A stretch of 64,000 nt of DNA from an uncultured Chloroflexia bacterium (lineage in GTDB: Bacteria > Chloroflexota > Limnocylindria > Limnocylindrales > CSP1-4), in assembly GCA_963749705.1 (NCBI GenBank), contig CAVVNQ010000006.1, positions 32,001 through 96,000 on the forward strand, in the 5' to 3' direction. A program made the position numbers and the translations under genes. Each line of letters begins with the position of its first letter. Positions within the stretch are counted from its first letter, which is position 1. Positions 16,558 through 22,267 of this stretch are shown piece after piece. Below the pieces are notes generated by a model. It was not told where the DNA came from. It saw only the letters and a list, made by a program, of their open reading frames with translations, and searched no databases.

Positions 16558-17283
16558 CTAGGTCCCGTCGCCGGACTGCGTCGCGCCAGGGGCGGGCAGC
16601 GTCGGCGTCGCTCCGGCCCGGTCCATGTCATGGCACAGGACGCAGGTGTCGTCGGCGCGCAGCGCGTGGTCGATCGGGAGGGCCCCGACGTTCGACGCCT
16701 GGTGACACGACCGGCAGGTCAGGTTCGGGTTGTTGGGGTGCGGCTCCTGGGGTGGCTTCTCGGCGGCCGGCTTGTGACACAGCCAGCAGTCATCCTGGTT
16801 GCGCCCGACCATGCTCGACGGCAGGTGCGCCACGCTCCCGTGGCAGTCCAGGCATGGCCGGTCGAGCTCCGAGTGCGCCTGCGTGATCGCCGGCCCCGGC
16901 TGCGCCACCGTGTGGCAGTTGAGGCACTCCGACTGGGCGATGCCTTCGTGACCCGGCGCCTTGCGACCCAGGTCCTCGTTGGTGTGGCACACCAGGCAGG
17001 CCTGCCAGCCGTCCAGCGGATGACCCAGGGCCGGGATCGGCTTGAGACCGCCTTCACCGCCCTTGTCGTGACACAGGAGGCAGTCGCTCGAGGTCGGGAT
17101 GTGGGCGAGCCCCATCTGCATCAGGTCGGCGGACGGCGCCGCGGACGCGCTCGGGCTCGGCTGGGCGTCGAAGTCAGGCAGGATCTGGAGCCATCCGGCA
17201 ACCATGATGCTCGCGAGCGCGGCCACGACGAGAAAGTTCGCCACGATCAGGGCACGCAGCCCCCGGTCGAGCCCGGTCCTCAT
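16558..17283 (-). CDS. Membrane-anchored 7-heme c-type cytochrome
   Basis: N-terminal TM helix; seven CxxCH (CLLCH, CLVCH, CLNCH, CLDCH, CWLCH, CRSCH, CVLCH); ATGA overlap with the protease gene. Confidence 0.92.
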   Translation of the reverse strand: MRTGLDRGLRALIVANFLVVAALASIMVAGWLQILPDFDAQPSPSASAAPSADLMQMGLAHIPTSSDCLLCHDKGGEGGLKPIPALGHPLDGWQACLVCHTNEDLGRKAPGHEGIAQSECLNCHTVAQPGPAITQAHSELDRPCLDCHGSVAHLPSSMVGRNQDDCWLCHKPAAEKPPQEPHPNNPNLTCRSCHQASNVGALPIDHALRADDTCVLCHDMDRAGATPTLPAPGATQSGDGT

Positions 17284-17849
17284 GACGCCGCTCCTGCCAG
17301 CTCCGCCGGCCGTGATGACAACCTCGATGCGAGGGCCACGGCGTGGGCCGTTCGACGGACGGCTTCGACCGCCGCCGGCAGCGCCGCGACGACCCCGCGC
17401 GACAGGCCGGGCCCGACATCGATCGCGCCCGCCTGGACACCCACCAGGACGACCTCCGGCGGCAGGATCGCGAGCAGCTTCGCGGTCGCGAGGAGCTCGC
17501 CGACCCCGCCCTGGCGGGACAGGGCCCGGAACCCGCCTGCGGCGGTCAGCCGCTCGCCGCGCACCACGGTGACGGTTCCCGGTGCATGGCCGAGGTCGAC
17601 GGCGTCGACCAGCACCAGCGCCCCTGCGTGCTCCACGTCGGGCAGCAGGTCGAGCCCGAGCGTGCCGCCGTCGAGCAGTCGGGTGCCGGGGGGCAGCGCG
17701 CCGGGATCGTGCTCGGCCGACCGGCCCAGCGCCTCGACCACGCGCACCCCGACACCATCGTCGCCCAGCAGCACGTTGCCCACGCCGATGACCACCACCG
17801 GGCGGTCGTCGATGCGGTCCGGCGTGCCCGGGCCGTCGTCGCGGGTCAT
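17280..17849 (-). CDS. hyaD: Hydrogenase maturation endopeptidase (HyaD/HybD family)
   Basis: VIGVGNVLLGDDGVG, DGGTLG, VDAV. Confidence 0.93.
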   Translation of the reverse strand: MTRDDGPGTPDRIDDRPVVVIGVGNVLLGDDGVGVRVVEALGRSAEHDPGALPPGTRLLDGGTLGLDLLPDVEHAGALVLVDAVDLGHAPGTVTVVRGERLTAAGGFRALSRQGGVGELLATAKLLAILPPEVVLVGVQAGAIDVGPGLSRGVVAALPAAVEAVRRTAHAVALASRLSSRPAELAGAAS

Positions 17850-18682
17850 TCCACGCGCTCCAGGAGCTCTTCGCCGCCGTCACGCGACTCGACGACCTCT
17901 TCCCGGGTCGGGAACTTGTAGCCGCTGAAGATGCTCGACATCAGGCCGTTCTTCTCGATGTGATCGACCAGCACGCAGCTGTACACGTGGAACAGGGCGA
18001 TGGCGAGGATCGCCCACATCGCGAGGTGGTGGACCAGGCGCAGCAGCTGCGGACCCATCAGCTCGCGCAGCCAGCCGAACAGCGTCGCGCCGGGCTCCGA
18101 GCCCATCAGGCCATCGAGGGCAAACCCGGTCACGGTCTCGACCAGGAGGAGCGCGAACAACGCGACGTACGCGGTGGCAGCCAGCTGGTTGTGGCCGAGG
18201 ACCTTGGGGATCTCCTTGCGGATGAAGCCGTAGAACCCGGCCTGTCGGAACAGCTCCATCGCCTGGTAGCGCGAGGTCGGGATGAACGCCGACCAGCGCG
18301 CGAACCGGTTGCCCGCCAGCAGCCACCAGGTTCGGAGCAGGCCCGAGACGAGGAACGTGAACGCGGCAAGGATGTGGATCAAGCGGATCGTGGTCATCAC
18401 GCCCCCGCCCGGCGCGATCAGGAACGGATCTGCGATGTAGCCACCGGTCAGGCTGAGCACCACGATGCAGCCGGCGGTCAGCCAGTGCGTGAGCCGTACC
18501 GGCACCTGCCACACGTACAGCCGGACGCGCTCGTCCGGCCGGTCGATCGCATGGGCGAGGTCCCCGGCGGCCGACGGCGCCTCCGACTGGGCGGGCCGAG
18601 GCGCGGGAGACGGGACCGGCAGGACGGGCGGCGTCGGCCGAACCTCGACGCGACCCGGCAACGGCTTCTGGATGGTCGTCAT
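17846..18682 (-). CDS. hyaC: Ni/Fe-hydrogenase b-type cytochrome subunit
   Basis: YVWQVPVRLTHW, RLIH, GHNQLA, RLVHHL, FHVY, SSIFSGYK. Confidence 0.95.
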   Translation of the reverse strand: MTTIQKPLPGRVEVRPTPPVLPVPSPAPRPAQSEAPSAAGDLAHAIDRPDERVRLYVWQVPVRLTHWLTAGCIVVLSLTGGYIADPFLIAPGGGVMTTIRLIHILAAFTFLVSGLLRTWWLLAGNRFARWSAFIPTSRYQAMELFRQAGFYGFIRKEIPKVLGHNQLAATAYVALFALLLVETVTGFALDGLMGSEPGATLFGWLRELMGPQLLRLVHHLAMWAILAIALFHVYSCVLVDHIEKNGLMSSIFSGYKFPTREEVVESRDGGEELLERVE

Positions 18683-20451
18683 CGGGCGGGCTCCGTACGG
18701 TTGACGCAGATCTCGATCGGGCCGCCGGCCCGCGGATCGAAGGCGTGGACCGCGCAGGCCACGCATGGATCGAACGAGTGGACCGTGCGCAGGATCTCGA
18801 GCGGCTGGCCCGGGTCGGCGACGCGGGTGCCCACCAGCGCCTGCTCGAGCGGGCCGCGGGTTCCGGTGTCATCGCGCGGGGAGGCGTTCCACGTGGTCGC
18901 GTCGACGATCTGGTAGTCGCCGATGACGCCGTCGTGGATCGAGACCCAGTGGCCCACGGCGCCCCGCGGCCCCTCGCCCAGCGACGAGCCCTCCGCCGAC
19001 GCCGGCCACGAGCCCGGATCCCACGATCCCCCATCGACCAGGGCGAGATCGCCGCTGGCGAAGTTGTCCTGCAGGTCGATCAGCCAGGCGCCGGCCTGTT
19101 TCGCCATGACCTTTGTCTCGACCGTCCTGGCGAGCATCCGACCGAGCGTGCTGAACAGCTCGGCCGGCTCCAACCCCAGCGTGGTCAGCGCCGTGTTCAT
19201 CGCGGCCCGGACGTCGATCTGGCCGTCGGCGTAGGCGACCGCCATCCGCGCCAGCGGGCCAACCTCCATCGGCTGCCCGTTGTAGCGCGGGGCCTTGAGC
19301 CAGCTGTACCTGGCCGCTCCCTCGAGCGAGGTCAGCGGAAGCGCAGGCCCGGAGTACGCAGGATCCGTTCGCCCGTTGACCGGTCGACGCGGTTCGCCAC
19401 TGTCGTCGTCCGCGTACCACGAGGCGGCCACGGATTCTGCAACCGAGCTCGCGTTCATCTCCGACAGCGACGCCAGGTTGCCCCCGAGGATCCGGCCCCT
19501 CGGCAGGTACAGCTTGCCGGTCTCGACGGCGGCACCCGGATAGTCGCCGAACGCCAGGTAGCTGCCCGACCCGACGCCGGTCTTGCCCCAGTCCGGATAC
19601 GCCTCCGCAAGCCGGAGCATGTCCGGCATCGCGACCCACGAGATGAACGTCTGGGCCTTGCTGATCAGATCGTTGATCAGGGTGAGTCCCGCGTCGCTCA
19701 GCGCCGACGGCGTGTTGCGGTCCGGCAGCTGGGGATGCTCGCCGGCGCGCCGGGCGGGCGGCCCGCCCCAGGGCGGCGTGAGCGAGACGCCGCCGACGAG
19801 ATACGACTGCGGATGCGGATCGCGACCGCCCAGCAGCGTGTGGATGCGCATGAAGTCGCGCTGCCAGTCGAGCGCCTCGATCGCATGTGCCAGCAGGACC
19901 AGGCTCAGCTCCGGCGACAGCCGGTAGCCCGGGTGACCCGCGAACGACGCCCCGAACGGGCCAGCCTGCCCGGACGAGGTCGACGCGGCAAGCCGGTCAC
20001 GGACACCGGCGAAGTACGACGGGCTGGACTTCGGCCAGTCGCTCATCGAGCGTGCAAGCGCCGAGGCTGCCTCGGGGTCCGCGCCCAGCGCGACCGTCGT
20101 GTCGGCCCAGTCCGGGAGCTGGGCGAGGTAGAACCGGACGATGTGGTCGCGAACCGCGAGCGTGGCCGCGAGGATGTTGCGCACCAGCCGGGCGTTGTCC
20201 GGGATCGTGATGCCCAGCGCGTCCTCCACCGCCCGCACCGATGCCAGGGCGTGGACACCCGTGCAGGTGCCGCACACGCGGTCGGCGATCATCCAGGCAT
20301 CCCTGGGATCCCGTCCCCGGAGGACCAGCTCAAGGCCCCGGAACATGGTCCCGGCGCTCCACGCATCGCGGACCTCGCCGCCGACGACGTCAGCCTCGAT
20401 CCGCAGGTGGCCGCCGACGCGGGTGACCGGGTCGATGGCGATGCGGGCCAT
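18679..20451 (-). CDS. hyaB: Group 1 [NiFe]-hydrogenase large subunit (divergent)
   Basis: RVCGTCTGVH and SFDPCVACAVH, RGLE, YSWLKAPRY, EVGPLAR, PRG, 21-aa C-terminal extension. Confidence 0.95.
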   Translation of the reverse strand: MARIAIDPVTRVGGHLRIEADVVGGEVRDAWSAGTMFRGLELVLRGRDPRDAWMIADRVCGTCTGVHALASVRAVEDALGITIPDNARLVRNILAATLAVRDHIVRFYLAQLPDWADTTVALGADPEAASALARSMSDWPKSSPSYFAGVRDRLAASTSSGQAGPFGASFAGHPGYRLSPELSLVLLAHAIEALDWQRDFMRIHTLLGGRDPHPQSYLVGGVSLTPPWGGPPARRAGEHPQLPDRNTPSALSDAGLTLINDLISKAQTFISWVAMPDMLRLAEAYPDWGKTGVGSGSYLAFGDYPGAAVETGKLYLPRGRILGGNLASLSEMNASSVAESVAASWYADDDSGEPRRPVNGRTDPAYSGPALPLTSLEGAARYSWLKAPRYNGQPMEVGPLARMAVAYADGQIDVRAAMNTALTTLGLEPAELFSTLGRMLARTVETKVMAKQAGAWLIDLQDNFASGDLALVDGGSWDPGSWPASAEGSSLGEGPRGAVGHWVSIHDGVIGDYQIVDATTWNASPRDDTGTRGPLEQALVGTRVADPGQPLEILRTVHSFDPCVACAVHAFDPRAGGPIEICVNRTEPAR

Positions 20452-20452
20452 G

Positions 20453-21739
20453 TCAGCGCACCCCCGGATCGTCGCCGGCAGGCGGGGCGGGTCGCTCGTC
20501 CATCGGGACATCGGTCGATGCGGCGTGCTCAGGTGCGCTCGCGGCGGACGCGCCGGGCCCCGCGGCCTCGGGCGGCGGCGTGATGGTCGTGCCGGTCGAT
20601 GGCGGGACGGCGACCGGCGTCGCCTCGGCGGCGGCAGCGGCGGCAGCCGCTTCCGCGGCTCGTCTCTCCGCTCGCGCGCCGAGACGCGTGCGCGCGTACA
20701 TCCCGACACCGTGGGCGGCCGCCACGGCGCCGATGCCGCCGACGAGCGCCGTGCCGACCCCGTCCGCGGTCACGTTGGGGAAGAACGGCACGGGCGACGG
20801 GAGGCGCCGGTAGAACGGGCTCATCGCGTCCCAGAAGTCCGGCATCGTGCACCCGATGCAGCCGTGGCCGGCGTGGATCGGCCAGCTCGTGCCCTGGGCG
20901 AACCGCTGGGTCGCGCAGTTGCCGAACGACTCGGGTCCCTTGCAGCCCATCTTGTACAGGCACCAGCCCTTCTGGGCACCCTCGTCGCCCCACGCCTGCA
21001 CGAACTCGCCGAACTCGAAGTGCGGCCGGCGCTCGCACTCGTTGTGGATCAATGGGCCGTAGGCGAACAGCGGTCGACCCCGTCCGTCGGTCGCCGGCCA
21101 CTCGCCGAGGGTCAGGTAGTGGACGATCGTCGCGGCCAGGTTGTCGACGTTGAGCGGACAGCCCGGGAGCGCGATGTAGGCGCCGCCGCCCGACGTGATC
21201 TCGCGCACGCCGCGGGCGTCCGTGATGCCGCCGCCCGCGCCCGGAGCCCCACCGTCGAACGCACAGGCGCCGACGGCGATCGTGGCCAGCGCCCCGTCGC
21301 ACACCTCGCGCACGATGTCGGCGAACGGACGCCCGCCCACCATGCAGTACGCGCCGCCGGCCCCGGTCGGGATCGATCCCTCGACCACGGCCAGGTAGCC
21401 GTTCGGGAAGCGGTCCATCGCGTTGGTGCGCGCCAGCTCGGCGGCGGCACCCGACGGAGCCATCAGCGTCTCGTGGTACTCGACGGACAACAGGTCGAGC
21501 AGGAGCGATGCTGCCGTCGGGTCGGCCGCGCGGAGGAACGCCTCCGTCTCGCCGCCACAGTCCTGGCCGCGCAGCCAGATCACGGGCAGGCGCGGCGCGT
21601 TGGCGACGGCCTCCGCGATCCGGGGCGCGTACGTGGCCGGCAGCGCGAGGGCAGCCGCCATCGCGGTCGAGAACTTGAGGAATGAGCGCCGGGTCATCCC
21701 ACGCCGGACCAGCGCGGCGTAGAGCCCGTCGTCAATCAT
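20453..21739 (-). CDS. hyaA: Group 1 [NiFe]-hydrogenase small subunit, Tat-exported and membrane-anchored
   Basis: TRRSFLK, YHETLM, GAC, PGCP, HNEC, CLYKMGCKGP, WP..AGHGCIGC, C-terminal TM helix with His. Confidence 0.95.
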   Translation of the reverse strand: MIDDGLYAALVRRGMTRRSFLKFSTAMAAALALPATYAPRIAEAVANAPRLPVIWLRGQDCGGETEAFLRAADPTAASLLLDLLSVEYHETLMAPSGAAAELARTNAMDRFPNGYLAVVEGSIPTGAGGAYCMVGGRPFADIVREVCDGALATIAVGACAFDGGAPGAGGGITDARGVREITSGGGAYIALPGCPLNVDNLAATIVHYLTLGEWPATDGRGRPLFAYGPLIHNECERRPHFEFGEFVQAWGDEGAQKGWCLYKMGCKGPESFGNCATQRFAQGTSWPIHAGHGCIGCTMPDFWDAMSPFYRRLPSPVPFFPNVTADGVGTALVGGIGAVAAAHGVGMYARTRLGARAERRAAEAAAAAAAAEATPVAVPPSTGTTITPPPEAAGPGASAASAPEHAASTDVPMDERPAPPAGDDPGVR

Positions 21740-22267
21740 CACGTCAAACTCGCTCGTTCGCCGTGGCGGGCGGGTGCCGGAGGCCCCACATCGGCCACAG
21801 CATGATCACGGGACGCCGGTACCGATGATGGAAGACACGGGGCCCGGATGGGCGTGCCACTGGTCGCCGTCCGGCCCTGCCAAGGGCATGGTTCGAAGGC
21901 CCGGATGGCCACGGGCGGCGGGTCGGACGGCAGGGTCCGGCCCGACGCCGGGGGTTCGCGACACGATCCCCGGGGGTTTCAAAAGCGTGACGATTTGCGG
22001 CTCCTGGTCGGCGGCCGGCCGGGCGAGCCAGCCGAGCGAGCCAGCCGCCTGCCGATCGGGGCGAGCAACCCGCAGGAGCGCCCGGGCTCGCCCGTCACCC
22101 GCGGCGGGCCGTGTTTCGCGCGGTCCGCAGGGGGACGGGTGCCGCGCCTGCCGCGTCCATGCAAGGTCGCCCCATCGCCATGGTCGTCGTCGCGGGGCTA
22201 GCATCCACGGACAACCGACCGCGTCCCCGCGGCCAGTCCACCATCGGCGAAATGGAGGAGGGCACTC

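Follow-up and report, generated by a model that had tools for sequence, protein, structure and literature searches.

Loss of the proton-gate glutamate in a clade of [NiFe]-hydrogenase large subunits from Chloroflexota

The window analysed here is the whole of a 64,000-nucleotide stretch of DNA from an uncultured Chloroflexia bacterium (contig CAVVNQ010000006.1, positions 32,001 to 96,000; assembly GCA_963749705.1). It carries, on the minus strand, an operon for a [NiFe] hydrogenase whose large subunit (P0001, 590 residues, 18679–20451; PF00374, E = 6.4e-176, 586.7 bits for a cut-off of 25.8) has a glycine in place of the glutamate that PMC8020662 terms the 'universal proton gate'. This residue, Gly13, is encoded by GGC (20413–20415, minus strand, as are all features of the operon given below) and lies opposite Glu14 of the Allochromatium vinosum enzyme (3myr_B) and Glu28 of Escherichia coli Hyd-1. 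A preliminary description of the sequence had reported DPVTRVGGH instead of DPVTRIEGH, with a codon two changes away from GAG, and had concluded that the proton-gate glutamate (E28 of Hyd-1) was lost; the re-read codon, the alignments to 3myr_B and HyaB, and the lack of glutamate in all 127 sequences of the clade to which the protein belongs bear this out. The substitutions in DRVCGTC, RDHIVRFYLAQLPDW and VDATTWN are likewise confirmed on re-reading.

The large-subunit gene is a stop-free frame of 590 codons and its product begins with MARIAIDPVTRVGGH. The closest solved structures are those of A. vinosum (3myr_B, E = 8.7e-155), Salmonella Hyd-5 (4c3o_A) and E. coli Hyd-1. A model predicted by AlphaFold from 89 sequences (predicted local distance difference test score, pLDDT, 88.5) gives template modelling (TM) scores of 0.90 to 3myr, at 44% identity, and 0.89 to E. 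coli Hyd-1; low confidence is confined to residues 234–245 and to the C-terminal tail. The Ni/Fe cysteines are all present, as they are in 119 of 119 clade proteins: Cys60 and Cys63, ligands of Ni, belong to the L1 motif DRVCGTC (20263–20283), and Cys563 and Cys566 to DPCVACAVH (18745–18771). The latter motif ends with the C-terminal His569, found in 127 of 127 clade sequences and followed in the window protein by an extension of 21 residues (18682–18744) that is the expected substrate of a maturation protease. The canopy arginine Arg496 (18964–18966; Arg509 of Hyd-1) and its partners Asp102 and Asp561 (Asp118 and Asp574 of Hyd-1) are present, and Glu41 and His67 are retained along with His569. 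Comparison with a 78%-identical homologue (L001) gives a ratio of nonsynonymous to synonymous substitution rates (dN/dS) of 0.22. The metal site and its maturation are intact and the gene is not decayed.

The glycine itself does not result from an assembly slip, as it is found clade-wide, as the same GGC codon occurs in three relatives (L001, L087 and L088) and as an independent contig agrees with the window. GGC is two changes away from either glutamate codon, GAG or GAA. A search of sequencing runs returned nine runs from three studies, and contigs from an RNA library (X1) match seven pieces of the operon at no less than 99% identity between 17276 and 21741; the operon fragments found at this identity in RNA-library contigs came from one study. 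The piece covering 20385–20569 spans codon 13 with 0 differences. These contigs give good support to the sequence being real, and weak support to its expression, since DNA can be present in RNA libraries. All runs consisted of contigs, so stretches of the operon left uncovered, like the absence of cover beyond it, carry no information.

The loss of the glutamate extends far beyond the window. A word-indexed homologue search found 7638 proteins with E ≤1e-30 among 8000 scored, and none of the best 120 listed homologues that have an N-terminus (56–97% identity) carries a glutamate at site 13. Two nested samples were aligned. The first combined 119 clade proteins with 49 wider representatives, after a motif filter passed by 168 of 197 sequences of 480–660 residues; the second enlarged the clade to 127 by adding genome-derived sequences, and was compared with an outgroup of 62 sequences with >38% identity. 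Site 13 is occupied by Gly (109), Asp (4), Asn (4), Ser (1) or a gap (1, the truncated P0006) in the first, and by Gly (116), Asn (5), Asp (4), Ser (1) or a gap (1), never by Glu, in the second. Outside the clade, Glu is found in 59 of the 62 relatives and in 40 of the 49 wider representatives. Two proteins among the first 121, P0014 and P0106, were left out by the filter because no CxxC was recognised in their first 200 residues; their site-13 motif still reads VGGH.

In a tree of 218 sequences (FastTree, LG+gamma, 574 columns), the 127 sequences that bear an aspartate at position 517 (see below) make up exactly one branch, with no other sequence inside it (support 1.0, stem length 0.20). The sister branch (support 1.0) consists of three glutamate-bearing proteins from the same family and class (L091–L093) that have RIEGH, VVPSTWN and HFYHLH, indicating that the glutamate-less state is derived. 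Of 401 sampled genomes of the phylum, 49 gave a match with E ≤1e-50; 67 places were listed, of which 52 were read, the 15 others being weak matches (36–45% identity, mostly partial). The glutamate-less type was found in eight genomes (G000, G079, G301, G349, G253, G221, G245 and G397), all from the window's own family (f1, 24 genomes sampled). Five of them also encode a paralogue with the normal glutamate (L116–L120), and a sixth, G397, encodes L091. The relatives bear the source labels 'uncultured Chloroflexia bacterium' (L001, L002), 'Candidatus Limnocylindrales bacterium' and 'Chloroflexota bacterium'. On these sequence comparisons, the loss of the glutamate defines a large clade, one that is under purifying selection, and is not a private feature of the window gene, which suggests that the enzyme is adapted rather than crippled.

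The preliminary description had called the glutamate near-universal. The 59 of 62 outgroup sequences and the wording of PMC8020662 agree with this, whereas the clade and several other lineages do not. Indeed, unrelated and shorter large subunits (P0164, P0201, P0212, P0225, P0236 and P0250, and also P0206 and P0231) lack it as well, the site being occupied by His, Asn, Gly, Ala or Ser. The glutamate therefore appears to be less universal in metagenomes than in the enzymes that have been studied.

Apart from Gly13, few positions are fixed inside the clade and rare outside it. The first is Asp517 (GAC, 18901–18903), within VDATTWN (18886–18906), which aligns to Val530 of E. coli HyaB: it is present in 127 of 127 clade sequences and in 0 of 62 outgroup sequences, of which 55 have Val. 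The proline that follows it in relatives is Ala518 in the window protein, and Ala or Gly in 118 of 119 clade proteins. The second is an insertion of about 20 residues after the GGV segment (LTPPWGGPPARRAGEHPQLPDR, 19717–19782), which is missing in 62 of 62 outgroup sequences; it holds a WGGP motif and His239, and its Trp228, Gly230 and His239 are each found in 127 of 127 clade sequences, Pro231 also being part of it. Smaller clade-specific shifts affect Ser490, Gly492, Arg320 and Gly255. In addition, position 62, the valine of CGVC, is Thr in 76, Ser in 18 and Ala in 15 of 119 clade proteins, against Val in 38 of 49 outside. This is the site of the Desulfovibrio fructosovorans V74 variants among the structural matches listed; in the window protein, Thr62 (20266–20268) stands in CGTC where relatives have the valine that lies at the end of the gas channel. 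The variability of site 13 and the invariance of Asp517 fit a site 13 that is now unimportant and a site 517 that is now essential. Asp517 is a candidate compensating acid, at another position than the lost glutamate.

The His-rich motif HxHxxHxxHxH has also been eroded. In its remnant, RDHIVRFYLAQLPDW (20107–20151), Asp102 and only the second histidine, His103, are kept; the other four are replaced by Arg101, Arg106, Leu109 and Gln111, and these four positions vary freely in the alignment of 119 clade proteins. However, when the five histidines of Thiocapsa roseopersicina HynL were mutated, only the second (His104) proved important, and cytoplasmic [NiFe] hydrogenases carry only two of the five, according to PMC3325256. 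The loss of most of the motif noticed in the preliminary description is therefore real, His103 being all that is left of five, yet it carries little weight and would have little consequence on published evidence. The same paper describes a proton route through Arg487, Asp103, His104 and Glu436, proposed with support from mutagenesis, and an E14Q variant that retained about 50% of the in vitro activity; it is only in this Hyn-type system that the gate glutamate has been shown to be dispensable for about half of that activity. The A. vinosum chain shares the T. roseopersicina numbering, so that the equivalents of this route in the window protein can be identified as Arg496, Asp102, His103 and Glu445 (19117–19119, counterpart of Glu436). 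They are conserved in 110, 121, 124 and 126 of the 127 clade sequences, respectively. The literature thus allows a proton route that does not depend on the gate glutamate.

The genes of the operon lie on one strand, in the order small subunit, large subunit, cytochrome b, protease and seven-haem cytochrome c, and are translationally coupled: three junctions are ATGA overlaps and a single base separates stop and start at the fourth. The small subunit (20453–21742; PF10518, PF01058, PF14720) has a twin-arginine translocation (TAT) signal, iron–sulfur (FeS) domains and a C-terminal membrane helix. The start codon of the cytochrome b gene (17846–18682; PF01292, E = 1.8e-26) overlaps the stop of the large subunit. 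It is followed by a maturation endopeptidase of the HycI/HyaD type (17280–17849; PF01750, E = 6.8e-18), the only copy found in this genome, which is 88% complete and also encodes HypD. The last gene (16558–17283; cytochrome c7, c3 and paired-CXXCH families) encodes a cytochrome c that is anchored in the membrane and carries seven CxxCH motifs. Such a heptahaem cytochrome closes the operon in all five clade loci read (the window, L001, L135, L136 and L137), and no haem c gene was found within about 5 kb of the three sister loci with the normal glutamate (L138–L140). No sensor kinase or regulator is present within the coupled gene set. Aligned to E. coli HyaA, the small subunit retains every ligand that HyaA has for its distal and medial clusters, and with the two cytochromes the path for electrons is complete; it has Gly at the positions of Cys19 and Cys120, and Arg and Asp at those of His13 and Glu16.

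Among known systems, the A. vinosum enzyme (3MYR) and T. roseopersicina HynSL provide the best match in sequence and fold. They share with the window protein the four cysteines, the canopy arginine, the Asp–His pair and Glu436, whereas 3MYR differs by Glu14, a complete HxHxxHxxHxH motif, Val-Val-Pro-Ser, CGVC and the lack of the WGGP...His insertion. The membrane partners also differ, Hyn-type enzymes having Isp1/Isp2, unlike the cytochrome b and heptahaem cytochrome c of the window operon. Hyd-1 (HyaABCD), an O2-tolerant enzyme of group 1d from E. coli, has the same order of small subunit, large subunit, cytochrome b and protease and the same TAT signal and C-terminal anchor on the small subunit, but it has Glu28, Val530, Pro531 and the His-rich motif and no cytochrome c gene. 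Cys19 and Cys120, the two additional cysteines of its proximal cluster, are replaced by Gly in the window, where Cys20 is also replaced, by Glu. Chloroflexota enzymes with the normal glutamate (L091–L095, L097 and L099–L127), including the paralogues from the same family, are 45–55% identical to the window protein; they keep RIEGH, VVP(S/T)TWN and HFYHLH and lack the insertion, and in the small subunits read Cys20 is likewise replaced, by Asp or Asn.

With group 1 uptake hydrogenases, the window enzyme shares the PF00374 domain and its fold, both CxxC pairs, the C-terminal histidine and tail, the canopy Arg/Asp residues, the TAT-exported small subunit, the cytochrome b and, except for the replacement of Cys20 by Glu, the aligned FeS ligands. 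Two features of the membrane-bound enzymes of this group are lacking, the gate glutamate and the HxHxxHxxHxH motif. PMC6776052 gives the name group 1f to broadly similar enzymes from Chloroflexales. Membership of group 1d is ruled out as the extra cysteines Cys19 and Cys120 are absent, both positions being Gly. Groups 1h and 1l, whose enzymes are closest to the 5AA5 type, are ruled out as well: 5aa5_C matches only part of the protein (E = 1.8e-29, against 8.7e-155 for 3myr). Group 1l had been considered since a preprint places it in this lineage; in group 1l, as described in bioRxiv 10.1101/2020.08.06.239558, short transmembrane genes separate those of the subunits and there is a Rieske-type partner, whereas the subunit genes are here adjacent and followed by cytochrome b. 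In the literature searched, whose coverage left most subscription journals outside, neither a description of a glutamate-less hydrogenase clade nor a characterised member of this one was found, and a search on the residues of the CO pocket likewise gave no result.

Taken together, these data suggest that the window probably encodes an active, exported and membrane-bound [NiFe] hydrogenase that takes up H2 and whose proton relay has been re-routed. The enzyme could have arisen and could work in the following way. The ancestor of the clade would have lost the gate glutamate and, on the same branch, gained Asp517 and the Trp/His loop of about 20 residues. H2 would be split outside the membrane at a normal Ni–Fe(CO)(CN)2 site, and the electrons would leave through three FeS clusters towards the cytochrome b and the seven-haem cytochrome c. 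Protons would no longer pass from the cysteine to the glutamate. They would instead use an old element, the retained Arg496-Asp102-His103-Glu445 chain, and a new one around Asp517, perhaps including the Trp/His loop and probably with water in the cavity left at Gly13. That the routing of protons differs from that of standard enzymes is well supported by the sequence comparisons. Catalysis may also differ substantially, as the preliminary description proposed; that earlier interpretation is, as a whole, partly supported.

A more radical version, which is put forward only tentatively, is that the catalytic acid/base has moved from the Ni side, where the glutamate stands by the terminal cysteine, to the Fe side, with Asp517 aided by the WGGP...His loop. 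If so, proton abstraction would start from a different active-site atom than in every hydrogenase studied, and the clade would be a mechanistically distinct class of [NiFe] hydrogenases, common in soil and sediment Chloroflexota, possibly with changes in bias, affinity or response to O2 and with its own heptahaem electron outlet. Mechanistic models, spectroscopic assignments and engineering of [NiFe] hydrogenases all rest on the gate glutamate. A natural clade that manages without it under selection reveals which residues changed alongside, and thereby supplies hypotheses for alternative proton routes, namely Asp517, the WGGP/His loop and the Arg-Asp-His-Glu chain.

Several observations weigh against a re-routed active enzyme. 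The Glu-to-Gln variant of the D. fructosovorans enzyme is inactive, as cited in PMC3325256, and the E28Q exchange impairs proton transfer in Hyd-1; PMC8020662, which reports the latter, also reports that water or hydroxide entering near the residue restores the relay. Both the H2-oxidation activity of the window enzyme and the identity of its proton-carrying residues are inferred from sequence, and dS is close to saturation for pairs more distant than the one used for dN/dS. The location of Asp517 raises a further difficulty. In Desulfovibrio structures, position 517 corresponds to a valine packed against the Fe-bound CO. The Ser/Thr that hydrogen-bonds CN stands two residues further on, and the Mg of the classical Glu-water-Glu-Mg path is bound by the carbonyl of the residue two places earlier. 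It would presumably be turned to the Fe-bound CO and not to the cysteine beside the gate glutamate, which makes a direct takeover of the gate by Asp517 doubtful. Moreover, six of the shorter glutamate-less proteins outside the clade (P0164, P0201, P0212, P0225, P0236 and P0250) have no Asp at this position, so that Asp517 is not a general solution to the loss. In the small subunit, Glu65 (21548–21550), within WLRGQDCGGETE, aligns to Cys20 of HyaA, a ligand of the proximal [4Fe-4S] cluster; in an alignment of 15 sequences, the rest of the clade has Ser or Asn at this position, whereas Chloroflexota enzymes with the normal glutamate have Asp or Asn.

Variation inside the clade points in the same direction. 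Position 496 is Arg in 110, Gly in 15 and Lys in 2 of the 127 sequences, and a subclade with APGGA is thus devoid of the 'strictly conserved' canopy arginine, most of its members also having Gln for the His after the first CxxC. Asp561 is replaced by Ala, Asn or Ser in 54 of the 127, and some members (P0123, L089 from G253 and L096 from G221) stop at the C-terminal histidine, with no extension for a protease. Parts of the clade may therefore no longer be ordinary catalysts. The window protein is, from the same alignments, one of its more conservative members. APGGA instead of APRGA was read in P0026, P0040, P0046, P0049, P0053, P0054, P0060, P0061, P0062, P0075, P0079, P0086, P0092, P0110 and at locus L096, while P0056 and P0096 have Lys.

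It is possible, though rather unlikely, that the enzyme is active but that the loss of the glutamate was nearly neutral, the pre-existing Arg-Asp-His-Glu route alone being used and Asp517 and the insertion serving something else, such as the tuning of Fe(CO)(CN)2, a Mg/water site or a contact with the small subunit. This would agree with the Hyn-type affiliation of the closest solved structure, that of A. vinosum, and with what PMC3325256 reports for T. roseopersicina, where E14Q is about 50% active and Arg487, Asp103 and His104 are the important residues. The four residues of the route are kept in the window protein, each of them being conserved in 110 or more of the 127 clade sequences, and site 13 varies among G, N, D and S, as expected of a site that has become irrelevant. 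However, Asp517, Trp228 and His239 are found in 127 of 127 sequences and arose on the exact branch of the glutamate loss, which fits a linked change better than drift; furthermore, the 15 members with Gly at position 496, which have lost the arginine at the head of this alternative route, still have Asp517.

An improbable explanation is that the protein does not turn over H2 as a hydrogenase, but is a slow, sensor-like H2-binding protein or a redox module that puts the Ni–Fe site and the FeS wire to another use, in which case gene surveys would over-count H2 oxidation. The changes that it would account for are, besides the missing gate glutamate, the replacement of the gas-channel valine by Thr, Ser or Ala in 109 of 119 clade proteins, of the CO-pocket valine by Asp and of the proximal-cluster cysteine by Glu, the subclades that also lack the counterpart of Arg509 and the His after CxxC, and the lack of a C-terminal extension in P0123, L089 and L096. 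Against this, the window protein keeps Arg496, Asp102, Asp561, His67, the extension and a protease of its own; its operon encodes an exported, membrane-anchored enzyme with cytochromes b and c, as expected of uptake hydrogenases that conserve energy, and the coupled gene set contains no sensor kinase or regulator; and dN/dS is 0.22. Finally, a sequencing or assembly error at the glycine codon, or a decaying pseudogene, is very improbable and refuted as far as sequence data allow: the disrupted N-terminal frame of a 95%-identical relative (L002) would favour it, but the stop-free 590-codon frame, the GGC codon shared with three relatives, the independent contig identical at this codon, the clade-wide conservation of the trait and the dN/dS of 0.22 all contradict it. 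An active uptake hydrogenase with a re-routed proton relay thus remains the preferred reading, and soil metagenome surveys count such genes as ordinary group 1 uptake hydrogenases.

Two minor observations concern the genome and the nearest relatives. The genome encodes a second hydrogenase (L082, G000:C4:279931-283191), which is of the cytoplasmic type, keeps the glutamate (RVEGEG), has CGICP and DPCISC and is adjacent to a small-subunit gene. In L002, the first 35 codons are out of frame in the record and the deposited protein starts at Met36, a break due either to misassembly or to recent disruption of the gene.

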